Source: Candidatus Colwellbacteria bacterium (GTDB lineage Bacteria; Patescibacteriota; Minisyncoccia; UBA6257; Colwellbacteraceae). From it: DNA of 64,000 bases. This document shows, piece after piece, positions 32,771 through 64,000 of this stretch; position 1 is the stretch's first letter, and every line of letters starts with the position of its first letter. Under the pieces are notes generated by a model that worked only from the letters and a program-made list of their open reading frames with translations, ran no database searches and was not told the origin of the DNA. A program made the translations under genes and the position numbers. The stretch covers positions 73,031 through 137,030 of the forward strand of contig JAQTUL010000001.1 in the NCBI GenBank assembly GCA_028710275.1, given 5' to 3'.

Positions 32771-34061
32771 CAGGGGGATCCAATATCTTTCAATATCGGC
32801 CGGACTATATCTTAAGCATGTCGGATGACACACCCATTCCCGTTTAGTCTCTGAACCTTCTCCATATCTTACGAGTTAGGAGCTTGGCTGCGGATTGTCC
32901 ATTGTTCATCTTTTACGTTTTTACTGTTCCGTAGGTCGTTACCCCCGGTCTCACTCAAGGATTTCTCAATGAGGATAGTAGTAAAAGCTTTAGGAGTTTC
33001 CCGCAATTTGAGGATGTCGCGATACCTTCATATCACTAGCAAGTTATATTAAAGAACAAATTACACTGTTTACCCGATGAAGTATTTTGTTCAACTTCAT
33101 CAGCAGCTTGCTGTTTCAGACTTCGATAGTTAAAAGAGAGTCAAAATTATCGGAAACAAAGACCTTATCTTTTGTTGACAAGGCGTAACAAAATTCCAAA
33201 GATATATCGAGAGCATCAGATAAAGAGATGTTTTTACTTCCAAAATTTATTCTCTTTTCTTCCGATTGTTTAGTCATGATGTCTGTGCGAACATACACCG
33301 CAACTGTATAGAACGTTTTGTATTTGAATGGTGTCACTCTTAGTTTTGATATGTTCATTCCGGAAAATAGATCTAGTTTATCTTGGTATTTGGGTTTATC
33401 GATATAACTGATTATTTCAGTATCATCGCCCTTTATTTTGTTGATAAACCGATTCGCATTCTTTACACATAACTCAAAGGTTTTGTGTTTTCCGGAATTA
33501 AACATTACACGAACTTTGTTTTCGTGACCTTCTATTTGAAGCATCACTCTTACAGAGTCGTATACACCATTCTTTTTTATAGGACGCTGAATGATCTTTT
33601 GAATATTCATTTTCTTGTACTCTGAAATCTTTACAGACATTGTTTTGAAGCCTTCCCCTCCCTTCTGAACATTGTATCCGTTTGGAATCATCGAGTTGAG
33701 ATCTTGAATATAAAAACATTCACGAGAATCCGCTTGAGATAGTTCACACATCTCAAGTTCTTCTATAGAGAAGTCTTCGTCACCATACTTTCTAATATCA
33801 ACGTGAAGAGGAGACGACGCTCCCTTCTTTGCTCTAAAAAGATGCCCTTTGAATCTCCCGTCGATACCATATGTTGAAAAATATCCTCTACAATCCTTTA
33901 CACGTTCTAGATAGTTACGAGTTTGTCCTACAAACACTTTGCCAGTTGTTTTACTGGTAATTTTATAAATGATGCTCTTGATTATCTTTGACATTTTATC
34001 ACACTGTAGATCTTTGTTATATGTTTAACGATAATGTTTAAATCGATTTTTAAAACGGTTA
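32771..34061 (-). mobile_element. Group I (IC1/Tetrahymena-type) self-splicing intron 2 in RPB1, carrying a GIY-YIG ORF in its P1 loop
   Basis: P1: the exon end 'ucagau' pairs with the IGS 'gucuga' located just after the ORF. Core: 'caaauugcgggaaa', 'cgcagccaagcuccuaa', 'agacuaaa', 'uaagauauaguc'. P9: 'ccgauauuGAAAgauauugg'. Omega-G lies before 'uucgaugggg'. Splicing gives ...KTYNSD|FDGDEMN. Boundaries are inferred to within a few nt. Confidence 0.7.
33116..33994 (-). CDS. GIY-YIG homing endonuclease (intron-encoded)
   Basis: 'IYKITSKTTGKVFVGQTRNYLERV' (GIY...YIG), a conserved Arg, Glu and 'NGYN'. It lies entirely within intron 2. Confidence 0.8.
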   Translation of the reverse strand: MSKIIKSIIYKITSKTTGKVFVGQTRNYLERVKDCRGYFSTYGIDGRFKGHLFRAKKGASSPLHVDIRKYGDEDFSIEELEMCELSQADSRECFYIQDLNSMIPNGYNVQKGGEGFKTMSVKISEYKKMNIQKIIQRPIKKNGVYDSVRVMLQIEGHENKVRVMFNSGKHKTFELCVKNANRFINKIKGDDTEIISYIDKPKYQDKLDLFSGMNISKLRVTPFKYKTFYTVAVYVRTDIMTKQSEEKRINFGSKNISLSDALDISLEFCYALSTKDKVFVSDNFDSLLTIEV

Positions 34062-34199
34062 ATCTGAGTTATAAGTCTTACACTGGGCCAAATTCATTCG
34101 AATACATCTGACCGGTTTATGATTGTTGATACCTGATGTATTTTTGATAATTTTTAGTTTTCTCGCAATCATGGATCCCTTATGGAGAGTTGGTTGTCG
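34062..34199 (-). CDS. RPB1: RPB1 exon 2 (46 codons: RQPTLHKGSMIARKLKIIKNTSGINNHKPVRCIRMNLAQCKTYNSD)
   Basis: Encodes the conserved RQPSLHKMSMM...RLNLSVTSPYNAD segment. It is in frame with exon 1 (…ALFG) and exon 3 (FDGDEMN…). Confidence 0.65.
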
Positions 34200-34564
34200 C
34201 AAACCAGTTTCCAGTCTTTCGAACTGAAATTGGACTATATCTTAAGCATGTCGGATGACACACCCATTCCCGTTTAGTCTCTGAACCTTCTCCGTATCTT
34301 TTACGATTTAGGAGCTTGGCTGCGGATTGTCCATTGTTCATCTTTTACGTTATTACTGTTCCGTAGGTCGTTACCCCCGGTCTCACTCAAGGATTTCTCA
34401 ATGAGGATAGTAGTAAAAGCTTTAGGAGTTTCCCGCAATTTGAGGATGTTGCAAATAGATGATCTATTCACTAGTAGATTATATCTGGGGACAATTTACA
34501 CTGTTTATCCCGAATAGTATATTGTCCAACTATTCGAGCAGTCTACTGTTTTCGGCCAACATTA
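34200..34564 (-). mobile_element. Group I intron 1 in RPB1 (365 nt, no ORF), homologous to intron 2
   Basis: P1: 'uucggu|' pairs with the IGS 'gccgaa'. It shares the same about 300-nt core as intron 2 (94% identical over plus 34237-34456 versus 32800-33018). P9: 'cagttcGAAAgactg'. Omega-G lies before 'cgacaacca'. Confidence 0.7.
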
Positions 34565-36394
34565 ACCGAACAATGCAATATCTCCATTTCGAATATGTCG
34601 TTCGACGATATCTCCAACTTGAACTTTGAAGAATCTCTTTTTCGATGGAACGATGTTCTTGAGTTCCTTTCCTTGACGAAAGACACGATCGCCGGGTTGA
34701 ATCTCGAACTTACCCGATTTTTGAAGCTCAAGATCGGGGCTGATAGTACGATCTCCTCGACGGATGACATCTCCAAGCTCAACTTGAAAAGTAATCTTCT
34801 CCGGGAGTTTGAATCCTTTCAAGATCTTTCCACCACGAGCAATCTTGTCCGTGGCGAGAAGAGTGATTGCGCGACCGGTTGCTGCCTTGAATTTTTCAGG
34901 GTAGATTTTCTTTCCTTCACGCAACACAATATCATCTTGTTCCAGAGAGAATCCACCGGTTTCATATGTTGCGCGTGTCTTGAGATTTTTCTTCAGATCA
35001 TAACTATCCATTTCCTTAGTCGCAGGATTGAGTCTTTTCACATAGTTCGCCTTTCCAGTGTTGACCAGTTCGTTCATCGCTGCGAGATTGCGATCAAAGA
35101 CTCGTTCAGGGAATGTGAGCTTTTCAGCAAACTCCTCGGGAATAGCAATCTCATCTGCGCGAAGACTCGGATCGGGATCGATAACTGTACGTCCAGTAAA
35201 GTCGTTACGTTTTCCTGAGAGATTCTGACGGAACAGTCCTCCCTTTCCATTCATACGCTCACGAATACACTTGATCGGACGTCCAGTGATCTGACGAGCC
35301 TTGAATTGATAGTTGTACATGAGAGTTCGAATATGGAAAAGTAGACCATCCTTCTTCTCTGCCAACTCCTTCTCTTTCAAGGGTTTCACTCCCGACGTAT
35401 GATTTTTGATCGCGTTACATCGTTTGATGATCTCCACGTATTTCGAGGTCAGATCATCGTCACAAGGGCCACGATTTGTTTCGACGAATGGACGCGCACA
35501 GATAGGAAGGACAAGTAGAGAGGTGATGATGAAATCCACAGGATTGATCTCTCGTCCCTTCTCATTCAATCCCATGTTCTTGAGATCCTTCGCCTTGATC
35601 GATCCGAGAACGTTCTCGATCTCCAAAAACGTCATCTCTGTCTTCTCAGACTTCTCACCCTTGTACTTGTAGTACTTGTAGTCCTCGACGTAGTACGACC
35701 ACTTATCACACTCACACTTTGAGTTTGGACACGCCTTCACTTTGGCTGTATAATCGATGATCGCTTTCATTCGACTCGCTCCTCGAAGACTGAACATATT
35801 CAGGAGTTTCATCTCCTTCTGAGTGATGAGAAGAGATGCACACTCACCACAGAAACAGTTCAGATACATCAAAATCTCCTCTGGGTACATAGGATGCGCG
35901 ATGGGAATCGGAAGTTCAATGTGACCGAAATGTCCTGTACACTTGTTATTCGATCCGTTACAAGTCACACAGAGGGCATGATTCTTCAGAACTCCCATAC
36001 GCGGATCATACACCGTACCTTGACCTGAGAGTTTACTGTCGGTGATTTCACATACTGAGATCTTCTTCACCTCCCGAGACGAAAACATACCGAAAGCGAT
36101 TCCTGTGAACTCCGTGGTATTTTCACACGAGACGATATCATCTTCGGTTATCTCCAGAAAATCCTCCTGGTCATCATCCTCCTTATTCCATTCAGTCTCC
36201 GCATCCTCGAGAATCTCTTCTCCTTCTCCAACGAGAAAATCTCCTGCATCCTCTTCCTCCTCGATAACTATCTCCGCTTTCTTTATCTGAGAGGCAATCC
36301 TCTTCTTCATATCGGAAATCGAGATATTGGACGACATCGTGGATCGTGTCTTCTGAAGCTGTAAAAATAGGGAAACTGTTATAGTAGAAATCAT
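34565..36394 (-). CDS. RPB1: RPB1 exon 1 (N-terminal clamp / active-site region)
   Basis: 'CVTCNGSNNKCTGHFGHIELPIPIAHP' Zn-binding region, 'GKGGLFRQNLSGKRNDFTGRTVIDPDP', and the end '...RNGDIALFG'. The in-frame taa at 34562-34564 is intronic. Confidence 0.85.
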
Positions 36395-39238: not shown

Positions 39239-42200
39239 TCACTTTATTTCACCAATAATTCTCACGGCGCGTTCGATTTCCAACACTCTATTTGGGAATG
39301 TTATTCCGGAATCTCTTACGTACTTACTCTTCAATCCTGATTCGTCATCTGCAAAAAACATATGTAATATCTCGTCTTCTGATGGAGAAAGAACGCCCGA
39401 CATATCGGAACCCTCTAGTGTCCTCTGTACGTAACGAAGTGATTTGTCTTCTGTCTGATAGTTCAGATTCATGAGATTCTTCTCATACTTAATCTTACCA
39501 GTGATAGCATCAACTCTTTCTGCCGCGGAGTACCATGTATCAACCTGTGTTCTGATGCTATCTTTAACTATAAGGTTATCTACCTCCTCCAGTTTGGACA
39601 GATACTGTTCTTTTATAGTATTTTTTTCTCTTCCATCTCTAGATTTATTTATCTGTACTCTAATCCAATCGATCCCTTGTGTGATACCTCCAAGTCCTAT
39701 CGACCCGAATATACTACCTACCATATTTGCCACATAATTAGATATAGTTGAAGACCATGTTTCAGTTACAGTTGGTTCTCCACGGGCTTTAATATCGGTA
39801 AAAACGTTTCCATTATTCTTGTTGTAGTCCTCTGTCATCTGGTGAAGCTTTTCATATTGTTTAGTCTCCTCTTCGAAGAGAGAATCTTTCTTCGTTAACA
39901 GTTCACTCTCTCTTTTCAGATATTCTTTAAAATTACTTCTCAAGAGAATTCCTGTTATGTAATCCATGTGATACGTCTTTTTCGATAACAGATACAATAC
40001 ATGTGGATTACTCCAATCTAAATCCTTACCCTTCAAATGTTCGTCAAACATTCTTCCCGAATTCATAACCGTACTGCTCTGTTTCATAACAGTATGTAGT
40101 AGATTTACAGATTTACTACTCATTTCGAACTTCGATAATCGACTTCGGTATTCAGGTGTAATCCACATCAGCATCAAGTTATTAGCTATAATAGTTTTCT
40201 TGTCTTGGGTAGTTCCCTCAATTCCGAGATTGGAGATTTTTTGATAGATATCATCTGTGATACTATCGATCTCCTTGATCACCTCCTCTGGAATAGATGT
40301 TACAAAAGCATTACGATTCAGACATGAACTTTGAGGGGGATCCGGACAGTCGTATTGAACCAGTCCAAAAGCATCTGATAGAACCTTTACACCAGTCATC
40401 AGATTTATAACCTTATCAAATGACTGTATCTCTTGAAGTTCCTCTCCTGAGTAGCTAGATGGAAATGAACTATCATCACCGAAAGCTTTCTCATAGATAA
40501 TATCATAATCATAGTCTGTTGTTGTATCGATTCCGATATCGAAGTCAATCTGCCTATCTATCTCCTTTACACGTTCGAACCCAACACTCTTCTTCAAACT
40601 CGAGAAAGCCTGTACAAATCTCTTATCCTCTTCTGTTACTGGTTTCATCTCGGGAACGAGAACCTGGATATGTTTGATCTCCGATGTAACTAGAGTATCA
40701 ACTGTAGATAGTGTACGTAACTCCTGATCACGAAGATTTTGTATCTCTTGTAACCCTTTAATATCTCGGGGGTTATTCTCCTTCAGACTCTCCTCCATAG
40801 TCTTCAATTCCTGTAGACGACGAATACCCTCCCTCTTTTTAGTCATACCGTATCCGACAATATTTCGCATTCCCTTTCGAATCTGTTCGACTGTGTAGTT
40901 TTCAAACTTATCGTAAATACCGGATAGCCATCCACGACTTTCACTACTCTCAACAACAACCTTCTTTTCACCAGTTAATCGATACTCTTCAAGAAGTCGA
41001 TCGATCTCTGGATCCAGAGATCCATATCCTCCTTCACCGGTTTTAACCTTTTCAATGATCGATGGATCGACTAGATATCGAGTTGTTGGGATATCTTTGA
41101 GAAACAGATCCTGTGTCTTTTTAATCGATGATAACCTCTTATTCGATTGATAGAATGAATCGATATCACTTCCACCCAGAGCCATTTCCAAACTCTGTTG
41201 TCTGATCACTATTTCGTTTATCGCCTGCATGTATTCAATATGATCATGTAACCCTTCATCCTTGTTGAATCGTTGAACAACATCGGTATACATAGTATTG
41301 AGATTCTCTAGTTTCTCAGATGCGTTGTCCGGAAGATTAGCGAGAATATTTTTGGAACTGGCCTCCAAGATAGCGATATTCTCTGTGTACTCCTTCATCC
41401 GATTATGAACGATATTATATTGCGTTCTCGCATCGGATTCAAGTGCGGCGAGTGCTGTCGGATCAGCTCGGTTGATAAAGGGGATGAACTTGTTTATCAC
41501 AATACTCGCTGTCTGCATTTTTGCATTCTCGTTGACCATCTCGGTGGTGGGATTATCCCATAGTCTTTCGTTCTTCTCGTAGTATTTCTGAATAAAGTCT
41601 ATCTGAGAGACTTTCGATTGTGACAGTTCAATCTTGTTGACTACATCATCTAATGCTTTCGAAGCAATCCTCAGATTGTTCTCCATTGTTACTCTCTGGA
41701 GAATTAATTCTCTCTGTTTTTCGAGTAACTCACCTACCGGATTCACTTTACTCATTTTTGAATTGAGAGAGACGAGTTTGAGACGAATCTCCTCCTTGTT
41801 ATCAAACAAATCCCCTTTCTCGTCGTTAAAGAGTTTCTGATTTGCAATCTCTATCGCCCGATTTCTGATGTCCATCTCTTTTCGTTCATCAATGACTTTC
41901 CTGATCTTCTCTTTGTCTAATTTCACCCCCTTGTATGAATTGGATTCTGATTCGAGCGTCATTATCGTATCGACATTAGACAAGACATCTATCATCGATG
42001 AGCTCATTGCTTGACTGAAATACTCATCCATCACTAAACGATTCGATAACCATGTGAAGTTACTATCGTATATAAAACTTTTTCGTCCATAGTTAACCTC
42101 AACCCATTCGATCATTCCACCAGCTACCTTATTTTTCATTCGGTTTACACTCTGATCGATCCATTCCACAATCAGATTAGATGAGAGATAATGATATGTA

Positions 42201-44245
42201 TAGAGAATATTCTTAGCTGCGCGTTTAGAAAGCCATCTACCACTCATCTTACCGGCTTTAGTATCTATCTCTCTGTACTTCTCAACCGTTTTCGGATCTT
42301 TGGCGTGATTTAACATATTGTCCCACAGACTATTGAGAAGAACAGTTCCCGCTCCAAATCCTATGACTCCGTAGACTATCGAGGTTTTGGCTAGATCTAG
42401 ATACTGATCTAGACTTGTTATCTGTCCTGATCGTCCGGAATACATAGCTAAGAGAGTCGGTGCAATAACCGATAGATACATCTGAGTGTGAGATTTGAGA
42501 AAATTAGTGGTCTTTGATGTCATCCAATTAACAGGAATACCCAAGAAGAATTTAGCTATCTTCTTATCCTGATACAAATTCAGAAGAATCTTCTTTGCAA
42601 ACTCATAAGCTGAGAGATCCTTGGTTGTCATCTTAATATAGTTCAGCATAGTTACCAGAACAGTTTCCATTCCTCCAAAGACTGAAATATTCTTTATTAT
42701 CGTTTGATGTATCTTGTCCCATGACAGAGGAGTGACTTCGGTTAATCGATCAACCATCGATATAAGTGTCTCTTTCGATGGTAAACCGTAACCTGTTTCC
42801 GACATATCCTTGTTTATAAAGAGACTGAAAAATTCTCTAAAGTACGGCATGACATTGATAAAGGAATTATAACATGCGACCATACAGAAGATTCCCGGTA
42901 TAGCATAAACTCCAAACTTCCAAACTATGTTACAAGTGTTGGCTACTCTCTTAACTATAGCCAATGGAATGGTTACTGGGTTGAGATATTTCAAAGGTCC
43001 TTCATTCAGGTATTTTAACGGTCCTATTGGAACAGAGGAAATCTTTGTGTAGATAGTAGTAAAGACACACTCCGGAAGATTTGCAATCCAATCTAGAGGA
43101 AGCATGACCTTTGATAGAATTCTGGAAATGGTCAGGGCTTCTTTTGTTGGCTCCATAAGATTTTTTATTGTCTCTCTATCCATACCCTGACCATAAGTTT
43201 TTGCTAGATCATCCGCTCTATGCTTAGAGAGTCTCGGATCGATAAACATCATTGTGACATCAAACACAAGACTAGCTGAAACTACAAATCCTCTACCGAG
43301 ACTGAGATGTGTTGCTGCCATATCTTTCACACAATCCATACATCCGATGAGAGGACTCTTCCACAGCGTATACATAATATTATCCCATGTGGTTTCACCT
43401 GAATCCTCTTTTATATTTTGATATGTGTCGTAAGCACTAAACATCATATAAATCGGAAGTGATCCTAATATCGCGCTTCCTCCAGAAAGTCCCATCGATG
43501 TAATGGTTGCTGAGACTACCCAGGTCTTTGCCGATTTGTATACAACACCCCCCATTGTGAAGTGGAAGAATTTGTACATGGAATTAACGTTGTTAAAATA
43601 CGATAGTGCCGAAGAGTTCTGATTGTAGAGAACTGAGTTACCCACATCATTAAAAAACTTTCTAAGTGTTCGAGTCTTCTTGTTAACAAAGATAGCCGAT
43701 GATTTCATTAGTATTTTAGTATCACCCTTTTGGATAAGATCGTTTATTTTTTTCTCCTCTGCATACTGATCATTATCTGCTTTGACCGCTCGGTTAAAAG
43801 ACCTGCGGAAGAACTCAATCTTATCATTAGAATCCTTTAATGTTGAGACGATTGTTGAGGCTAATTCCGGTTGAACAAATCTGTAGTCCCGAAGACGATT
43901 GATATCCGGTGTGTAAGTGTATCTGTTTGTGTTTAGAAAATCCTTCATCTCTCTTTTTGTTGTGATATCTAATAACTCCGGATAGATTCTCTCTTTACGG
44001 GTGAAAGCTTTAGTTGCCCATCCAAATACAGAAAACGATTTATTTACAGGAACTATATCCTTCTCTATCTCTCTTAGTTTCTCCTCTACTTTATTCATGA
44101 TAGAAATACTCTTGATTGTTGATGTCTCTTCAACAAAGGTACTCTCTCTAATAAAAGATAAGACATCATCTCCTCCTATTGAGGAAAGGAGAACCGATTT
44201 CTTTTTATCGGAAGACGAACTTTCAGTAATGGTCCCTGACGACAT
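39239..44245 (-). CDS. Very large (1668 aa) membrane-associated protein with a coiled-coil C-terminal half
   Basis: Several hydrophobic helices in the 230-700 region, followed by long heptad-rich segments. No catalytic motif. Confidence 0.5.
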   Translation of the reverse strand: MSSGTITESSSSDKKKSVLLSSIGGDDVLSFIRESTFVEETSTIKSISIMNKVEEKLREIEKDIVPVNKSFSVFGWATKAFTRKERIYPELLDITTKREMKDFLNTNRYTYTPDINRLRDYRFVQPELASTIVSTLKDSNDKIEFFRRSFNRAVKADNDQYAEEKKINDLIQKGDTKILMKSSAIFVNKKTRTLRKFFNDVGNSVLYNQNSSALSYFNNVNSMYKFFHFTMGGVVYKSAKTWVVSATITSMGLSGGSAILGSLPIYMMFSAYDTYQNIKEDSGETTWDNIMYTLWKSPLIGCMDCVKDMAATHLSLGRGFVVSASLVFDVTMMFIDPRLSKHRADDLAKTYGQGMDRETIKNLMEPTKEALTISRILSKVMLPLDWIANLPECVFTTIYTKISSVPIGPLKYLNEGPLKYLNPVTIPLAIVKRVANTCNIVWKFGVYAIPGIFCMVACYNSFINVMPYFREFFSLFINKDMSETGYGLPSKETLISMVDRLTEVTPLSWDKIHQTIIKNISVFGGMETVLVTMLNYIKMTTKDLSAYEFAKKILLNLYQDKKIAKFFLGIPVNWMTSKTTNFLKSHTQMYLSVIAPTLLAMYSGRSGQITSLDQYLDLAKTSIVYGVIGFGAGTVLLNSLWDNMLNHAKDPKTVEKYREIDTKAGKMSGRWLSKRAAKNILYTYHYLSSNLIVEWIDQSVNRMKNKVAGGMIEWVEVNYGRKSFIYDSNFTWLSNRLVMDEYFSQAMSSSMIDVLSNVDTIMTLESESNSYKGVKLDKEKIRKVIDERKEMDIRNRAIEIANQKLFNDEKGDLFDNKEEIRLKLVSLNSKMSKVNPVGELLEKQRELILQRVTMENNLRIASKALDDVVNKIELSQSKVSQIDFIQKYYEKNERLWDNPTTEMVNENAKMQTASIVINKFIPFINRADPTALAALESDARTQYNIVHNRMKEYTENIAILEASSKNILANLPDNASEKLENLNTMYTDVVQRFNKDEGLHDHIEYMQAINEIVIRQQSLEMALGGSDIDSFYQSNKRLSSIKKTQDLFLKDIPTTRYLVDPSIIEKVKTGEGGYGSLDPEIDRLLEEYRLTGEKKVVVESSESRGWLSGIYDKFENYTVEQIRKGMRNIVGYGMTKKREGIRRLQELKTMEESLKENNPRDIKGLQEIQNLRDQELRTLSTVDTLVTSEIKHIQVLVPEMKPVTEEDKRFVQAFSSLKKSVGFERVKEIDRQIDFDIGIDTTTDYDYDIIYEKAFGDDSSFPSSYSGEELQEIQSFDKVINLMTGVKVLSDAFGLVQYDCPDPPQSSCLNRNAFVTSIPEEVIKEIDSITDDIYQKISNLGIEGTTQDKKTIIANNLMLMWITPEYRSRLSKFEMSSKSVNLLHTVMKQSSTVMNSGRMFDEHLKGKDLDWSNPHVLYLLSKKTYHMDYITGILLRSNFKEYLKRESELLTKKDSLFEEETKQYEKLHQMTEDYNKNNGNVFTDIKARGEPTVTETWSSTISNYVANMVGSIFGSIGLGGITQGIDWIRVQINKSRDGREKNTIKEQYLSKLEEVDNLIVKDSIRTQVDTWYSAAERVDAITGKIKYEKNLMNLNYQTEDKSLRYVQRTLEGSDMSGVLSPSEDEILHMFFADDESGLKSKYVRDSGITFPNRVLEIERAVRIIGEIK

Positions 44246-46722: not shown

Positions 46723-48210
46723 CTATTCCTGTACCATCGGAATACTCAATCGTCCTCCGAACTCTGCGCATTTTTTCAATTCCTCTACTCCGATAACACC
46801 TTTCCCGAGGCATTCATGACGGTCGACATGACAATCGAATTCGCGAGCGCTATCGTTGTAGTGGATAAGTCTCGGAACAACTCCCTTCTCCTCAAGCCCG
46901 CTAAGATATTTACTCGGAAGAATTCCTGTACTCCATACATGGCAGGTATCAACACATACACCGAAACGTTTGTCATCTATCTCCCTGATGAATGAACTGA
47001 ACTCATCAAGAGTGGTTAGTGTCTCAGTTCCTTGTCCAGCCGGTGTTTCCAGCAGTAGAGGACATTCCTCTGTCGCGTACTCTAGACATTTGAGAATGTT
47101 CAGTTTCATAATCTCCAGCGCCTTCTTCTCGGTATTTCCTGTATACTTTCCTACATGAACGACAGTCCCTCTTGCTCCTATAGATTTGGAGTATGTCAGA
47201 TATTTCTGTAGACATTGCAATCCCTTATCGTTGTCCTCTTCATCAGTACAGAGATTGATAAGATACGGTGAATGGATGAAGAGAGGGATCTCTTTTTCGA
47301 GAACAGATTCGAGCATAGATGCTAAATCCCCATCGTCTAGAGAGATAGAATAGCTCTGATTTGATCCCAGGAATATCTGAGCAGGAACTCCTGGATACAG
47401 AATACTTGATGTACCCTTAACTCCGTCGACGAGAGCAACATGACTACCGATGTTGTATTGCCTCTTTACATTCCACATCAACTTCATATTCATGTCCTGT
47501 ATAAGTTTCACATCTCTCATCTCCAGGAGAAGTTCACGAAACTGTTTTCGGGTATCCCATCCGGAGATATCAAATGAGTGAACACATTTATGAAGGGGAA
47601 GTACTAGATGAAGTCGAGTATGAGTATCGGATAGACAACCATAACAGAAGAGTTGAAGGATAAAGTACAACCAACTCTTCTTGAGTTGTGTAGAGGTCTT
47701 GATCTCGAAGATTCCGGACTCTGTAACAATATCCGGATGACCTTGAACACCCTCACCGATGAACTCCACATCATACAATGGCATTTCACTCTCTTCGAAA
47801 GTCGGAACAATCTCCTCATCATCTGAATCCTCAAAGATAATCGGAACAAACTGTGAAATTTCCTTCTTGATCCAGACATTCTCAAGGCATCGACGAGTCT
47901 CCTCTATCTTCTGAACATAGTCGGTTGTCGTTTTCGACTCCTTTACCTTCTTTGGAATTTCACTCTTCATCAGTTTACAGATACTCTCTGTGGTCGGTTC
48001 AGAGAGCTTTAACATCTCTTCGGTAAGTAGACCTAAGATCGATGCTGAATTCTCTTTGGGTAGAATTTTTTTAAGAGCTGCCGGAAACACCGTCTTCATA
48101 TTTGCGAGATCCTTTGGAGCATTTCTAGCTTCCTTCGGGAGAAGTTTTTTGAATCGTTCCCGATTCTGTCTATTGAGACTATCTAGGATCTCACGTACGC
48201 GAATGCTCAT
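46723..48210 (-). CDS. nfo: AP endonuclease, endonuclease IV (Nfo) family, with an about 250-aa N-terminal extension that has a PD-(D/E)xK-like motif
   Basis: Nfo motifs 'HSPYLINL', 'VVHVGK', 'LLETPAGQGT', 'GVCVDTCHV', 'HYNDSAREFDCHVDRHECLGKG'. The N-terminal part has 'GHPDIVTESGIFEIKTST'. Confidence 0.8.
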   Translation of the reverse strand: MSIRVREILDSLNRQNRERFKKLLPKEARNAPKDLANMKTVFPAALKKILPKENSASILGLLTEEMLKLSEPTTESICKLMKSEIPKKVKESKTTTDYVQKIEETRRCLENVWIKKEISQFVPIIFEDSDDEEIVPTFEESEMPLYDVEFIGEGVQGHPDIVTESGIFEIKTSTQLKKSWLYFILQLFCYGCLSDTHTRLHLVLPLHKCVHSFDISGWDTRKQFRELLLEMRDVKLIQDMNMKLMWNVKRQYNIGSHVALVDGVKGTSSILYPGVPAQIFLGSNQSYSISLDDGDLASMLESVLEKEIPLFIHSPYLINLCTDEEDNDKGLQCLQKYLTYSKSIGARGTVVHVGKYTGNTEKKALEIMKLNILKCLEYATEECPLLLETPAGQGTETLTTLDEFSSFIREIDDKRFGVCVDTCHVWSTGILPSKYLSGLEEKGVVPRLIHYNDSAREFDCHVDRHECLGKGVIGVEELKKCAEFGGRLSIPMVQE

Positions 48211-48310
48211 CGTGAGAAGGTTATCTTTATAAGAATCTCTTTCTTATAAAGTCATTTTTAGAGACACTAAAGTTTGAGTATCTAAAAATTAGCTAGCTAT
48301 TATTTAACAT

Positions 48311-50206
48311 ATGTCAAGTGTAAAAGCTCAAGACGATTCTTTGACGAGTGATCTCTTCGCTGCATACGACGAATTCAGAGCGAAGTTTGCTCCTCAACAG
48401 AATTCTTTTCCTAGTATAGACGATTTTCAACGTAAGATGATTGGTAAAGGATACTTATTGTATCAAACTTCTGATTATCTATCTAGCATTATCTACCTCT
48501 CCATTGCGTTATGGACATACGCTATAAAACCTAAATCGGAGGAGAGTGTTAATAGTCTCAAGAAATTTATTGCCGATACGAGAGGGAAACTCAAATCCTC
48601 TCTTTCAAACGACCAGAATAGTGACATACCAAAATATAATCAAACATCGGAAAGTGATATGCGAGATAGGACAACAGGAAAACTTATCTCATTTGCAACC
48701 ATGTCAGGAGCCACAAGGGAGAAAAGTATCATAACCAATAAATTTATTTTTCCAAATCTATATCCGCATCTTTTCCTATCTGACTCAAACAATATTTTGT
48801 TGTACGGTCCTCCAGGTACTGGAAAAACATTAATCGCGAAAGCCTGTGTGGGGGAACTAAATCGTCAATCAAATGGCGAGTTCAAATTCCTATTCTACAG
48901 TCTCTCAGCGAGTGATGTACGCAGTAAATGGGAAGGTCAAACTGAGAAGAATATTGCTGCTATGTTTGAAACAGCTAGTAATACCGCGAAGGCTGAAGAG
49001 GAGAAATACAATAAATCCTCTTCATCGTCATCGAGCTCTTCATCCAGTAAGAGAATAAGAGTCAAAAGTATTCTCTTTCTGGATGAGGTTGAATCTATTG
49101 CGGAATCACGAGAGAAAGGAGGTGACGGACGAGCTCTTACCACACTCTTACAGAAGATGGACGGTATGAAGTCCGAGGATAATGTTATAATAATGGGAGC
49201 CACAAATCTTCCCTGGGATCTCGATCCCGCATTTGTAAGACGATTTTCAGCATCCGTATTTGTTGATCTTCCGGATTTTCTGGCCCGTGTAGATCTTCTC
49301 ATCAATACATTTATCGATAAGTATGAGAAACACAGTGATGTTCGTCGTCTTCTCTCTTTCGTAGTTGTACCAGAGTCTAACGATGCGGAGTGGAAAAAAA
49401 TCTCTGAATACGAGATTATTGGGGATGATGAACCGACTAAGAGAGTATTGGAGACTATTTCGAGAATGTTCTCCACACTCCCTAAAGATGAGAGACGAGG
49501 AAAAACTCCATCCGAAAAGTATGCCTCAATTGTTATGAATCGGATAAAGGAGATCGTATCAACTAAAAATATAAAGGTGGATTGGGGTGTCTGGATGAAA
49601 GAGCGATTCGAACATTACATAACCTTTGTGAATTTTATCTTTTATATTTCCGATATGATGGGACCTTCGTCAAAGGTTCTTAAGAAGTTTTCAGGAGGAA
49701 CTCTAGGTAAGAGAGCGATTCCGAAACCGAGAACGAAGTACGGATACAGCGCGAGTGATATAACAAAGATCGTTAGTGAATTTTTCTCTATTACAGCTGA
49801 GAAAATTATCCAATCTCGATTCTCACAAACATCAACCTCTTCGGTTGGATCTTGTGATGACGATTTCATCGAAAAGGGATCTCGTAAGAATAACTGTTAT
49901 GTGAAGCTTATATCACAAGAGAGTATCGAACATGCAAACGATGGGATGTTCTTTCTTATCTCCGATTCTAAAAAGAAGGAGGAACGATTCCTCAACGAGA
50001 AATTTCAGGATAGTTATACAGTATTTGTCCCTCGATTATTCGAGATAGCTATGGATAACTACCCATCGACAACCGGTAATCTTGATATGTATTGTAATTA
50101 TATTGAATACGAACGAACGGGTACAACACCTAATTGGAAAGCGCGTTGTGAAACTATAGACATGGAGGGTGATGATGAAGATGATCGTAAAAAGAGACGC
50201 GTGTGA
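48311..50206 (+). CDS. AAA+ family ATPase
   Basis: Walker A 'LLYGPPGTGKTLIAKA', Walker B 'ILFLDEVESI', sensor / arginine-finger region 'GATNLPWDLDPAFVRRF', and a poly-Ser insert. Confidence 0.8.
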   Translation: MSSVKAQDDSLTSDLFAAYDEFRAKFAPQQNSFPSIDDFQRKMIGKGYLLYQTSDYLSSIIYLSIALWTYAIKPKSEESVNSLKKFIADTRGKLKSSLSNDQNSDIPKYNQTSESDMRDRTTGKLISFATMSGATREKSIITNKFIFPNLYPHLFLSDSNNILLYGPPGTGKTLIAKACVGELNRQSNGEFKFLFYSLSASDVRSKWEGQTEKNIAAMFETASNTAKAEEEKYNKSSSSSSSSSSSKRIRVKSILFLDEVESIAESREKGGDGRALTTLLQKMDGMKSEDNVIIMGATNLPWDLDPAFVRRFSASVFVDLPDFLARVDLLINTFIDKYEKHSDVRRLLSFVVVPESNDAEWKKISEYEIIGDDEPTKRVLETISRMFSTLPKDERRGKTPSEKYASIVMNRIKEIVSTKNIKVDWGVWMKERFEHYITFVNFIFYISDMMGPSSKVLKKFSGGTLGKRAIPKPRTKYGYSASDITKIVSEFFSITAEKIIQSRFSQTSTSSVGSCDDDFIEKGSRKNNCYVKLISQESIEHANDGMFFLISDSKKKEERFLNEKFQDSYTVFVPRLFEIAMDNYPSTTGNLDMYCNYIEYERTGTTPNWKARCETIDMEGDDEDDRKKRRV

Positions 50207-50791: not shown

Positions 50792-50825
50792 TTTTTTTTG
50801 TGACTTACTTGTGTGGTTTGAGACT

Positions 50826-51515
50826 TCAACATTTTCTCAGCAGACCCATAAGCCCAGGGAAGACTTTCATTCCACTCTCCCAGAGCAACTCTTCGATAGC
50901 CGCTTGTCTCCGTGCTTGGTGGAACCGCCACCACCGTTCGATGGCTCGGACCGGTTGGCGGAGAACGCGAGGGTGAATTTTGGCATTTTCGATGTACCAC
51001 CCTTCACTAGTCAAGACGGCCTTCCCATCAACAACCTCACACTGTCTCCAAGCCGGGCCATCTACCCGATGAGTTATACCATTCAAACACCACTCTTCAC
51101 ATGTCAAGACGACTTGTCCGGCGACCACTTCCCACGCTCGATAAGCTGGACCATCTGTGTGATGAAGTTTCCCATTCAACCGCCACCCTTCACTAGTCAA
51201 GACGGCCTTCCCATCAACAACCTCCCACTGTCTACAAGCCGGGCCATCTATCCGATGAGTTATACCATTCAAATCCCACTCTTCACATGTCAAGACGACC
51301 ACCCCGTTAACCACCTGCCACTGTTTCCAAGCCGGACCATCAGTGCGATGACGATGACCATTCAAACGCCACACTTCATGGGTCTTAAATTCCACTTCAT
51401 CCACAGTAGTATAAGTGTATGTAGGAGTGCTCATGGTGATTGTCGGCGACAACTGTTGAATATAGGTGATATCACCTCCTATATTCCCTAAATAATCACT
51501 TTTTCTCATATTCAC
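50826..51515 (-). CDS. MORN-like (DGPA-type) repeat protein
   Basis: Six or more copies of about 23 aa: 'W.LNG..HR.DGPA...W.VV.G..VLT.EEW'. Confidence 0.6.
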   Translation of the reverse strand: MNMRKSDYLGNIGGDITYIQQLSPTITMSTPTYTYTTVDEVEFKTHEVWRLNGHRHRTDGPAWKQWQVVNGVVVLTCEEWDLNGITHRIDGPACRQWEVVDGKAVLTSEGWRLNGKLHHTDGPAYRAWEVVAGQVVLTCEEWCLNGITHRVDGPAWRQCEVVDGKAVLTSEGWYIENAKIHPRVLRQPVRAIERWWRFHQARRQAAIEELLWESGMKVFPGLMGLLRKC

Positions 51516-52016: not shown

Positions 52017-55000
52017 TTAAATCAGAGGCTTAGTTTTATGATTCTCCTCATCATCACTACTATCATCGTAATCACTACTCTCATCATCTTCCGATACCTC
52101 TTTGATCTCTACAGCCTTTACTTTCTTCACCGGTGATTTTTTCACCGGCGATTTCGTGTTTCGTTGTGGACTCTTTGGTTTCTTCTTATGAAGCATCGAG
52201 AAGTCCTCTTCGACATCTTCCTCAACAACTTCCTCAGGAACCTCGATATCAAATGAATCTTTTTCCTCATTCTTATCGAGGTCCTCTTCACGAATGATGA
52301 TCGCCTTTCCCTCCTTCTCATCATCTTCCGCGGTTCTCAAACGATATCCCTTCCACTTATGACTCGGAGTAAGATCACCCCACTTCTTTGTTATCTCATC
52401 CCTCAGATCCTCCTTGGATGGAATTTGAGAATGAAGGTTAGGATAGGAATCGTCGAACCAGGTCTTGAATGAGTTGTAAGTCTCGACGACAGACATAAGA
52501 GCTTTTTCATTCGAAGGCTCATAGACAATCTTCTCCATGATGAACTGGAGGAATACGTCGTTCTGCTTACGATAAGCAGCCGTGGCTGAACGAACTTTTT
52601 CTGGTTCAGCCATACGTCCATCCTTGAGAATCTTTTTGAATGTGTCAAACATCATCCACATAAATGGAGCTTTCATTTTGGGAAGTTTATCAGTAAAGTA
52701 AGGGTCTCGTGGAAATCTCTTCAATCGAATCTGATCTTCAAGAAGCTCAGGAACATTATCTTTCGGGAAACATGCCTCATGAGGAAGAACTCGAATACGA
52801 TTCCATGTTGCGGGATCATCACATGGAAGTCTCGGAAGCTTATTACATATTAAACTAAGCTTGAACTGAGGCTTCAGTTCCTGACTTTCTTTGTACAGTC
52901 CACGATAATAGATGATATCGTTACCACTTAATTCCTTCAGAATACCGATGTTGATCACATCTTTGCTATTCGGCTCTTGAAGGACAGCAAAACGGACTCC
53001 AGGAAGACCGGCATACTCTGGAGTTGCTTGAGATGACTGAGTACGCTTTCCACTAATCAGAGAGGTTGGAAGAATCTTCATGTATCGACCGAGTGTCAAC
53101 TTAAGAAGATCCATATTAACAGACTTTGCGTTATCACCTTCACCTGACATATTAAGAAATGTCTTACTACTATTACCTCCACGAAGAAGACTTGCTGTAT
53201 ATTCCATCCAATATTGTTTCAATTCCGGATCGGGAAACACTTTCGAGAAGTGATCATCTACGTCGATAACCTCTTGACTATCCCAAGAGTACTCCTGAAA
53301 ATCGTAACCAGTCGTAAGACTGACATAATCAGTCGGTCGTCCGGGACGAAAACGCATTTCTCCGAGATCGAGAATACCGTTACTGAAATGAATAAGATTG
53401 ATATCAGAGTCCAATTTATCGATAAAACTGTCATCGACAAACAGTTCGATACAATTGTGAACCACGACACCATTTGCAACAAAGTTATGAATATTGTCAA
53501 CGGTAATATCATATACAGTTCTCTTTCCGACATTTTTAATATTGTGTACATCAACAATAAGAGATGGAAGAGTTAAACTATCTCTCTTAAAGCAATATGA
53601 AGGTCCATTATCCGAAAAGAAGAAATCTTTTACACCAATACTCTCCATATATTCAATGGGTTTAATCCCCAGTTTATACCTAATCTCACCAATATTTCTC
53701 ATATTATTAACCAATGTTGAGTATTTAGGAACCACTTTATCATTTAAGAATCTACCATCTCTAGTTTCAACGTTGAGTTTAGCTTGATCGATATAGTTTC
53801 TAAGGTTTACTCTCTTTACACCATCATATCCAGAAATTTTCTTTAATTCTTTTAGGAATTCTATTCTCTGGTTGCATACTGTATTATACATATTCGCGTA
53901 AGAACATGCTGCTGTTAGTTTCAATAATTTATTTGTACAATAACGAAATCCAATATTATCTGAAAACAAAAGAATATCCCGAAAACTGACATCAAATTCT
54001 ATTTCATACAGATCACGATTTTTAACCTTTCGTTTGGATTGAATATTAACATTGGATACTCCACATTTAGAAAACATTTTTACTATATCATTCATCATAA
54101 TTTGAAGAGACTCCACATGCTCTCCACATTTAGATTGTGAAAATCCGACAGATGTTATAACATTCGAATTTGTGACTACATTTGCGTGGCCATCTCCACC
54201 CATAAGTCCTCCCAGAAATTCTCTGATAATAGGAATAGGGCAATCATCTGTAAGAAGAAATTCCGGAAGAGTAGATTTTTGAACCGATCTTCTACCTAAA
54301 CTTATTCCAGGAATAAGAGCAATATTTTTACTCACACATGAAGGAATTGCTACACCATAAGTCCACCCTTTTGTTTCTTCATAAAAACTACTATGATTGT
54401 TAGTTATTTTTGGTCTCTTTCCACAGAGAATTTGTATGTCATCCACAAAATTATTTGCATCAATTAAAGATCCTAATGAGACATTTGCATTAATAATATT
54501 AGTCGACTTGTTATGAATTATAGTTTCGTCAGATAACATTAATCCGATAATTCGACTGAAAATTAGAGATTTTTCATATTCAGATTGTGTATCGGTTTTC
54601 AGAGTGAGAGAACCAAAAGTTGTAGTCCAGCCGTCACATAATTTCATATCATTCACGACACTAATTTTGACACCTGTGATACTAGTTCTCACTTTATCAA
54701 CACCCGGTTTCAAATCACCAGAGAATACCCATCGTCCGTCAGAAGTAAGAATTGGATGATCATGTGTTGAAACAAGTTTGGTTCCATCGGAAAGCATCAA
54801 TTCTACACAGTCCTTTTCTCCTTTGTTCATAAAATTGGTCTGTCTTTCGTTCAATATTCCATTCATATTTTCATCCCACCCAATAAGTCTATTTGTATTA
54901 TTATTTAGTTCTTCGATGGGAACACTCAATCCGTTACTCATTGTTACATACGTACCCGCGCTGATACATTCAGCGATAATATTATTTTTGAACGGTGTCG

Positions 55001-56492
55001 ATTTCAAGCTTGCAATAATTTTATTAACTGTTTTCAAACGCTTCTGAAGTTCAGCATCATCATCTTGTGAACCCATATCCTCACAAACCTTCTTCTTCAT
55101 GTTCTTGTATTCATTAACAAGTTCCGTAGAGATCTTTCGTCTCAAATCGATACCCTGTTTATTTACAACCCATCGGTGATTCTTATAATGAAACCACACC
55201 TTCTTTTCAGGACATGCACACACAAATTCACCTTTATATTTATTATGAAGCAACTTGGCCATATCGTAGTGTCCTCCGTTGAGAGACTCGTTGAATAATC
55301 GATCGTTATCCTTCCTTTGAATCTTTTTATACTCTTCAGGACTATCAATCTTCGCGTAATGATAGAGACTTCCGATAGTACGATTTCTCTTTTCCATACG
55401 CTCCCATTGATACACACATCCGGCCTCTGAAAAATTCTTCTTAGAGGTCTTGGATGAGAACTCAATCCACATATCAAGTGCGTCCTCTGTACCATCTCCA
55501 ATATTGAATAGGACCCATCCAATATCTAACCAGTCGTCGAAGTTGTCTGCGCGAGATGAAGAGATAAGTTTCATCAACTCTCGCGCCTTCTTAAGTGCTT
55601 CAGGAGTAGGCATATCTTCGAACAGCTTCTTACTCTCCTTCGCCTTCTTGAGAAGTTTCTTGGTGATAATGTTCAAGTCGGCTTTCACTGTGATGGGTTC
55701 TCGAGTTCCCGGATGAATAGAGAGAATTCGTGGAAGATAGTACTCGAGTGGATGTTCATCCATTTTTACCGGATCACCATGTACATCAGTCAATTTAAAA
55801 TCACTTAATGCCTCCTCTAGAGAGATCTCGTTACAGTCATCATCAAAAACCTTAGTAACCTTATAGGATTGAAGATACTCCTTCTTTCGAGATCCATACA
55901 GAAGCCAGAACTTTGAAGTACAACTCTTATCAATCACTTCCTCAGACTTGATAACTCCAATATCTTTGAAGAGATCCTTATCTGCTACCTCCTTTCGAAC
56001 ACGAGGGATAAGATGAACATCCTGATCAACCTTGTGCATAATCGCATTGATAAAATGTAAATGAAAACCGTGCTTAATCTCCTCCTTTGTTTTGTCGTAT
56101 GTTGGATGTTCCTTTTCTAGAACGACACAGACACCATGTCGTTTCTCGTAGTTCTTCACAGTCTGCTTCAGATGTTTTTGGTAAATCATTGCTGTCTGTC
56201 TAATATGTGTGTCTTTGTAAAGTTTTTTATCAAGAGGATGTTTGGCTGGATCATACGACAATTTAATATCCGAATCATTGAGTACAGGAAGAAACTCACC
56301 CGGACGTTCTGCGAGGCCGGATACCATCTTCGGATTACTGTACATTGTATCACAATAAAGTTTCCACCACTCCTCATCATCTTTTCTTGTCAAGTTATAT
56401 TTCCCTGTAGGTTGAATCTGTGAAACATGAGTGTAGTACCCCTCACCTTTTTCTTGACGTGTAGCGATGAATTTTCGAAGAGAGAGATCCAT
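52017..56492 (-). CDS. D5-like primase-helicase (AEP primase plus SF3 helicase) interrupted by an intein
   Basis: N-terminal primase region 'KHGFHLHFINAIMHKVDQD'. Helicase region after the intein: '…NMSGEGDNAKS…' (Walker A-like), 'FAVLQEPNS', 'PQFKLSLICNKLP'. Confidence 0.8.
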   Translation of the reverse strand: MDLSLRKFIATRQEKGEGYYTHVSQIQPTGKYNLTRKDDEEWWKLYCDTMYSNPKMVSGLAERPGEFLPVLNDSDIKLSYDPAKHPLDKKLYKDTHIRQTAMIYQKHLKQTVKNYEKRHGVCVVLEKEHPTYDKTKEEIKHGFHLHFINAIMHKVDQDVHLIPRVRKEVADKDLFKDIGVIKSEEVIDKSCTSKFWLLYGSRKKEYLQSYKVTKVFDDDCNEISLEEALSDFKLTDVHGDPVKMDEHPLEYYLPRILSIHPGTREPITVKADLNIITKKLLKKAKESKKLFEDMPTPEALKKARELMKLISSSRADNFDDWLDIGWVLFNIGDGTEDALDMWIEFSSKTSKKNFSEAGCVYQWERMEKRNRTIGSLYHYAKIDSPEEYKKIQRKDNDRLFNESLNGGHYDMAKLLHNKYKGEFVCACPEKKVWFHYKNHRWVVNKQGIDLRRKISTELVNEYKNMKKKVCEDMGSQDDDAELQKRLKTVNKIIASLKSTPFKNNIIAECISAGTYVTMSNGLSVPIEELNNNTNRLIGWDENMNGILNERQTNFMNKGEKDCVELMLSDGTKLVSTHDHPILTSDGRWVFSGDLKPGVDKVRTSITGVKISVVNDMKLCDGWTTTFGSLTLKTDTQSEYEKSLIFSRIIGLMLSDETIIHNKSTNIINANVSLGSLIDANNFVDDIQILCGKRPKITNNHSSFYEETKGWTYGVAIPSCVSKNIALIPGISLGRRSVQKSTLPEFLLTDDCPIPIIREFLGGLMGGDGHANVVTNSNVITSVGFSQSKCGEHVESLQIMMNDIVKMFSKCGVSNVNIQSKRKVKNRDLYEIEFDVSFRDILLFSDNIGFRYCTNKLLKLTAACSYANMYNTVCNQRIEFLKELKKISGYDGVKRVNLRNYIDQAKLNVETRDGRFLNDKVVPKYSTLVNNMRNIGEIRYKLGIKPIEYMESIGVKDFFFSDNGPSYCFKRDSLTLPSLIVDVHNIKNVGKRTVYDITVDNIHNFVANGVVVHNCIELFVDDSFIDKLDSDINLIHFSNGILDLGEMRFRPGRPTDYVSLTTGYDFQEYSWDSQEVIDVDDHFSKVFPDPELKQYWMEYTASLLRGGNSSKTFLNMSGEGDNAKSVNMDLLKLTLGRYMKILPTSLISGKRTQSSQATPEYAGLPGVRFAVLQEPNSKDVINIGILKELSGNDIIYYRGLYKESQELKPQFKLSLICNKLPRLPCDDPATWNRIRVLPHEACFPKDNVPELLEDQIRLKRFPRDPYFTDKLPKMKAPFMWMMFDTFKKILKDGRMAEPEKVRSATAAYRKQNDVFLQFIMEKIVYEPSNEKALMSVVETYNSFKTWFDDSYPNLHSQIPSKEDLRDEITKKWGDLTPSHKWKGYRLRTAEDDEKEGKAIIIREEDLDKNEEKDSFDIEVPEEVVEEDVEEDFSMLHKKKPKSPQRNTKSPVKKSPVKKVKAVEIKEVSEDDESSDYDDSSDDEENHKTKPLI
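53454..54968 (-). mobile_element. Intein (505 aa, canonical Cys...His-Asn/Cys) with a LAGLIDADG homing-endonuclease domain in the D5 primase-helicase
   Basis: Starts 'CISAGTYVTM', block B 'THDHP', LAGLIDADG motifs 'RIIGLMLSDETI' and 'FLGGLMGGDGHA', ends 'FVANGVVVHN|CIELF'. Confidence 0.75.
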
Positions 56493-63061: not shown

Positions 63062-64000
63062 CTAATTTGTAATTGGAATCCCGGACATCGAACTAGTCGA
63101 TGGATCGACACTCGTATCCTCCTCTACGAAAATGAATTCGGGTGGAGTAGTGTCATGAGTAACTTTCTTTCCTCTCTGGAGACCTGGAGGTCTTTCAGGT
63201 GAGGACTTTGCTAAGGAGCAGATGTTAAGGGACGCATTAGTATCTCTATTCCAGTACTGGTTACAGGTTGTGCACCTTAACAAGCCATGGACTAGTGATT
63301 GATTCCCTCTTCTCCACGGACGAGGACATTCTCGCCACATAAACTTCTTATTCACTCCTTCACACTGATAACAGGTACAAGAGGTTTTGTGTTCGTCCAC
63401 TAGATAAACCTTGTAACCATTCTTTCTAAAAATGTCTCTTACCCCCTTTCCGAGAGTTGGCTCTTTCCACTTCATCTGTCGTTTCTGTTCCCAATCACCT
63501 ATCGCTATCACCGCTTCAGTTGGACCTCCAAACACGTTCTTAAAGTTACGAATCATCTTACTCTCTGATTTCTGTCGTAGAATATGTCCTCTCCACCTTA
63601 TGGATCTGAATACCTCTTTCTGGTACACAGATCTACATTCCTCTTCAACTTCTCTCTTCTTAGAGACGTAGTACATGAACTCGGTGTAATCAGATGAAGT
63701 TGAACGATAGTGAGAGAGTTCCTCCTCTATACTCTTTACTGGTTCTCTTTGTTTATCTAATTTGTGTCTGTGGAATCTCTTACAGCACTCCCTCTTTCTC
63801 TGAACAGCCGAGTATCGAAATCTCTTCTCTCCATCAGTACAGTGAATAAGATCCTCCTTCCCGGGATCGATACCAACTACAGAGGTGTAGAGATCTCTTG
63901 TAGAGAGAAATTCGGGTCCAGTAATATAAGGTTCAGTGAACTCAGGAGTTTTTTCTTTATCTAAACTCTCCTTGTGAAGAAGAATCGAGACTCCCTTACC
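63062..64000 (-). mobile_element. TnpB/Fanzor-like RuvC nuclease gene (IS200/IS605 OrfB family), 5'-truncated by the window edge
   Basis: The frame is open to the window edge. RuvC-I 'VVGIDPGKEDLIHCTDGE'. RuvC-II 'LVDEHKTSCTC'. Zn finger 'CYQCEG...CTTCNQYW'. RuvC-III 'NRDTNASLNICS'. Confidence 0.7.

Follow-up and report, generated by a model that had tools for sequence, protein, structure and literature searches.

Does an endonuclease IV of a giant virus carry a second nuclease in the same polypeptide? The question is raised by a gene for a 495-residue protein (Table 1) in a 64,000-nucleotide stretch of contig JAQTUL010000001.1 (assembly GCA_028710275.1, positions 73,031 to 137,030), deposited under Candidatus Colwellbacteria and called here, at its full length, the window. 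The product is 100% identical to NCBI MDD4930623.1, a protein from a metagenome-assembled genome (MAG) whose record, on a 152,625-bp contig, reads 'MAG: TIM barrel protein [Candidatus Colwellbacteria bacterium]'. Databases annotate only the endonuclease IV (Endo IV) half of such proteins, as 'AP endonuclease family 2', 'deoxyribonuclease IV', or 'TIM barrel protein'. An earlier reading of the window from its letters alone, hereafter the original prediction, had proposed that an apurinic/apyrimidinic (AP) endonuclease is joined here to a second nuclease in cis. Our results assign the N-terminal domain (N-domain), by structure prediction, to the PD-(D/E)xK nuclease fold of the RecB/Cas4/MGME1/Dna2 clade, in a form free of any iron-sulfur (Fe-S) cluster and predicted to be catalytically intact. 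The reading we favor, with a probability of about one half, is that the gene encodes a bifunctional giant-virus DNA-repair enzyme whose two nucleases act on the same lesion.

The C-terminal half is predicted to be a complete Zn-dependent endonuclease IV. Pfam model PF01261 (AP_endonuc_2) scores 96.8 bits against a cut-off of 31.1 (E 2e-27, residues 279-479), NCBIfam nfo (deoxyribonuclease IV) models cover residues 254-493, and Endo IV chains from the PDB match residues 253-493, among them 5ZHZ (E 1e-18), 1QTW, and 6KHY from African swine fever virus (ASFV). NCBIfam cut-offs are not reached, either for TIGR00587 (99.2 bits against a curated 129.65) or for the equivalog models, PRK01060 among the nfo set (69-109 bits against 244-376), and the domain must therefore be viewed as a divergent member of the family rather than an equivalog of bacterial Nfo. 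The full set of nine metal ligands is there (H313, H352, E388, D421, H424, H450, D463, H465, and E495), corresponding in order to E. coli H69, H109, E145, D179, H182, H216, D229, H231, and E261. Seven of these were mapped by BLASTP to a sequence verified identical to 1QTW, and two by hidden Markov model (HMM) alignment to 5ZHZ. In an alignment of 172 full-length relatives, the sample behind every conservation figure given here, the nine are conserved at approximately 100%. In 153 of 163 members the protein ends at the last ligand Glu (E495, codon 46726-46728, in the window), and the C-terminal tail of roughly 24 residues found in E. coli Nfo is therefore absent. We speculate that helix 221-250 of the N-domain may stand in for the C-terminal helix that the barrel lacks. 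The original prediction had confined the Nfo TIM barrel to the C-terminal 250 residues or so and had treated the first 245 or so as a distinct domain, a division that our boundaries bear out (barrel at about residues 252-495, with 251 residues preceding it).

Within the N-domain, attention had been drawn to one string, GHPDIVTESGIFEIKTST, which is indeed there at residues 157-174. A bare motif proves little by itself and amounts to no more than chance, because D-x(6-20)-(D/E)xK finds 110 matches in the window, in 33 of its 44 long open reading frames (ORFs). The extended signature GxhD...(D/E)hK...QxxxY, however, occurs only once, in the fusion ORF, and its conservation across the relatives (96-98%) is far beyond chance. 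Conservation is 98% at G157, P159, E/D169, K171, Q186, and Y190, 97% at D160, and 96% at H158, while median identity to the window protein is 28% for the N-domain and 37% for Endo IV. In nucleases of the RecB/Cas4 family, QhxxY forms the fourth motif, and the combination of GxhD, (D/E)hK, and QhxxY is what we take to be the motif set of nucleases of that type.

For the fold, AlphaFold2 run on the full-length single sequence returned a predicted local distance difference test score (pLDDT) of 36, and a model of residues 1-251, based on an alignment of 58 sequences, was used in its place. That model is confident (pLDDT 91, predicted template modeling score 0.85). It consists of a helical N-terminal region (residues 5-113) and a beta-beta-beta-alpha-beta-beta core, with strands at 150-152, 155-157, 166-170, 199-204, and 209-214 and a helix at 176-193. 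D160 follows directly after strand 155-157, while E169 and K171 lie inside strand 166-170; these are the canonical positions for a PD-(D/E)xK active site. Q186 and Y190 fall inside helix 176-193. A terminal helix of 30 residues (221-250) abuts the first barrel strand at residue 252, with no linker between them. The model lacks regular structure over residues 114-149, and pLDDT drops below 50 at 118-127. Because residues 118-139 are gaps in about 99% of the relatives, the acidic insert in this region (Table 1) is specific to the subclade of the window protein.

Among solved structures, the N-domain model best matches MGME1 and the Dna2 nuclease domain (match score 10.8 for each), followed by AdnAB (10.2), RecE and Cas4 SSO0001 (both 9.4), LHK-exo (9.1), ACE1 (8.9), Cas4-Cas1 (8.8), Exo5 (8.0), lambda exonuclease (7.6), RecB and AddA (both 7.2), and mimivirus R354 (6.7). 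The top 25 matches in a Foldseek search of the PDB are the same set of proteins. The predicted structure thus has a restriction-endonuclease-like alpha-beta-beta-beta-alpha-beta core, with significant similarity to solved PD-(D/E)xK members. The suggestion that the D...E.K spacing recalls lambda-exonuclease and RecB nucleases gains support from the extended signature, its conservation, and this fold, and so does the view that a second nuclease, presumably active, is carried in cis with a presumably active AP endonuclease. A chance motif in a region lacking any restriction-endonuclease-like fold is contradicted by the present evidence.

We looked in the N-domain for the four-Cys Fe-S cluster of the Cas4/Dna2 type, and found no Cys column conserved above 31%. 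There is therefore no Fe-S cluster, and the N-domain cannot be Cas4, Dna2, or AddB in the strict sense. It is most like MGME1 and, without the cluster, resembles RecB and lambda exonuclease as well. N-domains of relatives are recognized by existing profiles: seven of nine match PADLOC model RTasPDDEXK (best E 1.7e-7), and five of nine match PADLOC Cas4 (best E 3.8e-5). Matches of the N-domain to DUF2683, PTPS, sorting nexin, and FcoT were dismissed as noise.

The family was collected with the N-domain alone as query, with a scan of IMG/VR for a distant relative, by iterative alignment searches, and by an exhaustive phmmer search. The N-domain alone found one close relative, P0001, 83% identical overall and likewise fused. 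The IMG/VR scan contributed a full-length relative, 28% identical, from a 505-kb giant-virus contig, in which GHPDLVIDGTIYDIKTTG...QLLAY aligns to the motif of the window protein. Iterative searches brought the collection to 59 proteins, and phmmer against 1.84 billion representatives found 156 clusters at E <=1e-3, 88 of them at <=1e-10. The 205 proteins gathered include 172 with both domains and 32 'N-only' entries, which are short fragments. Among the collected proteins we found neither a stand-alone N-domain nor an N-domain with any other partner. The fusion of N-domain to Endo IV is obligate in this family. One candidate, P0138, was rejected as a false positive with Sushi/EGF repeats.

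Two of the 'N-only' copies, L008 and L009, are split or frameshifted genes, since an Endo IV ORF lies directly downstream on each contig. In L008 (2778-4262 and 4340-5185), an N-domain ORF of 224 residues and an Endo IV ORF of 212 residues are separated by about 170 nucleotides, and the split could stem from a frameshift, an intron, or faulty assembly. Other members are extended at the N-terminus: P0090, P0093, P0202, and P0121 have unannotated extensions of 60-160 residues, and no Pfam domain was found in the N-terminal extensions of members. In L005 (2859-4481), the reading frame continues about 75 residues upstream of where the family starts; it contains CxxC...CxxC, which may form a zinc ribbon.

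The fusion family looks restricted to giant viruses. Named members are the 'AP endonuclease family 2' proteins of Marseillevirus LCMAC101 and LCMAC102, and matches by structure only, in BFVD, add Pithovirus LCPAC101, Pithovirus LCPAC201, and the cultured Cedratvirus Zaza. A cultured Cedratvirus thus appears to carry the fusion, judged by a structural match alone (E 1.4e-3). When 185,579 species genomes of bacteria and archaea (GTDB) were scanned with a degenerate DNA signature built by hand, seven matches came up, of which two were chance matches and five were true members (L013, L015, L016, L017, and L018). All five lie on contigs in MAG bins, labeled Alphaproteobacteria, Saccharibacteria, Saccharimonadales, Actinomycetota, and simply 'bacterium', and have virus-like neighbors: F-box/leucine-rich repeat proteins, a 2-cysteine adaptor domain, deoxynucleoside kinase (dNK), ribonucleotide reductase, a Dam-type methyltransferase, and a MutH-like protein.

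The window, too, is giant-virus (Nucleocytoviricota) DNA. It encodes Rpb1, the largest subunit of RNA polymerase, in two minus-strand ORFs within 29855-36394, one with domains 1-2 (34562-36394) and the other with domains 2-5 (29855-32833). A GIY-YIG-like ORF (33116-33994) stands between these halves, and an intein with a LAGLIDADG endonuclease occupies residues 434-899, approximately, of the second. A D5-type archaeo-eukaryotic primase (AEP) primase-helicase of 1491 residues (52017-56492, minus strand) also contains an intein (Intein_splicing, residues 518-1013). Further products are TFIIS, RNase III, RNase H, NUDIX, and EsV-1-7 repeat proteins, and a fusion of cap methyltransferase to poly(A)-polymerase regulatory subunit. 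The listing under Candidatus Colwellbacteria is evidently a binning error; it looks like a giant-virus contig placed in the MAG of a bacterium of the candidate phyla radiation (CPR).

What the two halves might accomplish together can be outlined. Both folds and both sets of catalytic residues, strongly conserved, are joined in an obligate fusion; activity of the two domains, their action at one lesion, and the polarity and substrate of the N-domain are what we infer. The Endo IV half would nick DNA on the 5' side of an abasic site, to give a 3'-OH and a 5'-deoxyribose-phosphate (dRP), and would remove 3' blocking groups such as those left by bifunctional glycosylases. The N-domain, attached without a flexible linker, would then engage the new 5' end and remove either the nucleotide or nucleotides bearing the 5'-dRP or a displaced 5' flap, so that a clean 5'-phosphate and a ligatable gap would be left for viral polymerase and ligase. 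In the RecB/Cas4/MGME1/Dna2 clade, the substrates of characterized members are free DNA ends and single-stranded 5' tails or flaps. A more detailed version is tentative, and we lean somewhat against it as a whole. It describes a self-contained 'incise-and-trim' enzyme, in which the nick at the abasic site is followed by removal of the 5'-dRP end or flap by a rigidly attached MGME1/Dna2-like nuclease, as a bypass of, or backup for, the dRP-lyase and FEN1 steps in the canonical pathway of base excision repair (BER). Helix 221-250 may, in that version, replace the missing barrel helix and make the protein one structural unit, and the fusion would be a lineage marker of mis-binned giant-virus contigs.

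Gene neighborhoods of relatives include repair functions, which lend such a mechanism some support. An Fpg/Nei DNA glycosylase gene adjoins L008 on the opposite strand, an NAD-dependent ligase lies two genes from the fusion in one relative, and an ATP-dependent ligase is near the fusion in one relative. Several observations, nevertheless, weigh against a repair enzyme with two nucleases acting on one lesion. At least one fusion-carrying genome has a separate XPG/FEN1 flap nuclease, and a dedicated flap or dRP nuclease may for that reason be redundant. No other BER gene was found in the 64-kb window, and a search for a conserved repair operon across the loci of the relatives examined found varying neighborhoods, with repair genes no more than loosely associated. 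Conservation reaches only 68% at E149, the upstream acidic residue. The N-domain of the window protein has no significant match to any nuclease family in Pfam, NCBIfam, PHROGs, PADLOC, or PDB sequences, this copy being too divergent to score in profiles, and its assignment as a nuclease therefore rests on predicted structure and on relatives.

The main rival to a repair enzyme acting at abasic sites is one that works outside classic BER, cleaning the ends of oxidative strand breaks and supporting recombination. Endo IV would remove 3'-phosphate or 3'-phosphoglycolate, and the N-domain would resect the 5' strand as RecE, lambda exonuclease, AdnAB, and RecB do, preparing breaks for the viral genome to be replicated or repaired through recombination. 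The best structural matches, however, are MGME1 and Dna2, which are nucleases of flaps or single-stranded DNA and not processive exonucleases of double-stranded DNA, and no locus examined has a single-strand annealing protein (annealase) or helicase partner beside the gene; we regard this explanation as rather unlikely. Two nuclease active sites in one protein, with nucleotide-metabolism genes (dNK and ribonucleotide reductase) nearby in some relatives, could instead suggest that the protein breaks down DNA of the host or of a competitor, either to salvage nucleotides or to shut the host off. Endo IV, though, acts specifically on damage and is poor as a general DNase, all nine lesion-processing ligands are strictly conserved, and the repair genes found nearby (glycosylase, ligases, and FEN1) point to repair, making such a role improbable.

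Two further explanations deny the N-domain any catalysis. It might be a PD-(D/E)xK fold without catalytic activity, of use to Endo IV only as a module for DNA binding, targeting, or oligomerization. Conservation of D160, E/D169, K171, Q186, and Y190 at 97-98%, against a background identity of 28%, argues for an active site rather than a scaffold, and leaves this idea highly improbable. Alternatively, the motif could be coincidental and the N-terminal region no nuclease fold at all. The abundance of the bare string in the long ORFs of the window is in keeping with coincidence, as is the lack of an N-domain match in Pfam, NCBIfam, PHROGs, and PDB sequences; set against the conserved extended signature and the predicted fold, coincidence is scarcely credible.

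Compared with characterized enzymes, the window protein has in common with E. coli Nfo (1QTW), M. tuberculosis End (5ZHZ), and ASFV pE296R (6KHY) both the TIM-barrel family PF01261 and the nine ligands of the trinuclear metal site. Those are single-domain proteins of about 250-300 residues, however, whereas this one adds a nuclease domain of 251 residues at the N-terminus and, unlike E. coli Nfo with its tail, stops at the last ligand. Human MGME1 (mitochondrial genome maintenance exonuclease 1; 5ZYU and 5ZYT) is a stand-alone protein of eukaryotic mitochondria, while the N-domain is always fused to Endo IV and has its own conserved N-terminal helical region (the HRVR...LPK motif); no sequence-profile relationship between the two is detectable. 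Cas4 (SSO0001, Pcal_0546, and Cas4-Cas1), Dna2, and AddB have the four-Cys Fe-S cluster that the N-domain lacks. The related domains of Dna2, Cas4, ACE1, AdnAB, AddAB, and RecB are partnered with helicases or Cas1, whereas the partner here is an AP endonuclease. Mimivirus R354, a Cas4-like nuclease (5YET), is a much weaker structural match than MGME1 or Dna2 and is not fused to Endo IV.

The nearest precedent comes from entomopoxviruses, which encode fusion proteins of DNA polymerase X and AP endonuclease (PMC4202312). There, as here, a large DNA virus joins an Endo IV-type AP endonuclease to an enzyme for the next step of repair, but the partner is a polymerase of the Pol beta/X family in entomopoxviruses and a PD-(D/E)xK nuclease in giant viruses. 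According to the same paper, the genes for AP endonuclease and for Pol beta are otherwise separate in nucleocytoplasmic large DNA viruses (NCLDVs), and a PD-(D/E)xK-Endo IV fusion goes unmentioned (PMC4202312). The entomopoxvirus protein was the only viral AP-endonuclease fusion found in the literature searched. A full-text search, incomplete in coverage and giving absence of evidence only, found no description of the PD-(D/E)xK-Endo IV fusion. Both parts belong to known families, and it is their conserved combination, widespread in giant viruses with 156 or more sequence clusters, that appears to be undescribed.

The finding makes a clear, testable prediction about viral BER and overturns nothing. 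Should the N-domain be active, BER in giant viruses has a second, coupled nuclease step, and both the reconstitution and the interpretation of the viral pathway would change accordingly. Cedratvirus may offer a tractable source of the protein, should the structural match hold. The GHPD...(D/E)IK...QxxxY-Endo IV signature may also serve to flag giant-virus contigs hidden in bacterial MAG bins.

Table 1. Parts of the fusion gene and its upstream region, in window coordinates.
Feature	Position	Strand	Basis or remark
Whole gene, 495-residue fusion (PD-(D/E)xK N-domain and Endo IV)	46723..48210	-	ATG start at 48210, uninterrupted ORF
Stop codon of fusion gene	46723-46725	-	
Endo IV (Nfo) TIM barrel, residues 252-495	46726..47457	-	Pfam, NCBIfam, and PDB Endo IV chains
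N-terminal domain, residues 1-251	47458..48210	-	
QxxxY motif, Q186-L-F-C-Y190, in helix after (D/E)xK strand	47641..47655	-	Translation checked
Motifs II and III, G157-H-P-D160 ... E169-I-K171-T-S-T174	47689..47742	-	Translation checked
Acidic insert, predicted disordered, residues 118-147, ISQFVPIIFEDSDDEEIVPTFEESEMPLYD, between N-terminal helices and beta core	47770..47859	-	
Divergent intergenic region, 100 bp, AT-rich, between fusion gene and AAA+ ATPase gene	48211..48310	.	Sequence and ORF layout

The ATG start of the fusion ORF is supported by a family-wide N-terminal motif, (H/I)RVR..I..L....LPK.A, which aligns to residues 3-28 of the window protein. The intergenic region, presumed to hold the promoter, is shared with the AAA+ ATPase gene, at 48311-50206 on the plus strand.

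Some other genes of the window deserve brief description. At 50811-51515, two antisense ORFs of 226 and 229 residues overlap almost fully across coding DNA repeated in tandem; the product of the minus strand contains four to five repeats of about 46 residues (W.LNG..HR.DGPA...W), MORN-like in appearance, with no significant Pfam match. No Pfam model at all matches an ORF of 1668 residues (39239-44245, minus strand) that lies just downstream of one for an EsV-1-7 repeat protein. In a minus-strand protein of 1451 residues (11796-16151), a NADAR domain lies at the center (residues 752-924) and the rest is unannotated. Two ORFs are of mobile-element type: a 204-residue ORF with a Cas12f1/TnpB-like TNB domain (63062-63676, minus strand), and a homing-endonuclease-like ORF with HNH and NUMOD4 (526-1560, plus strand).
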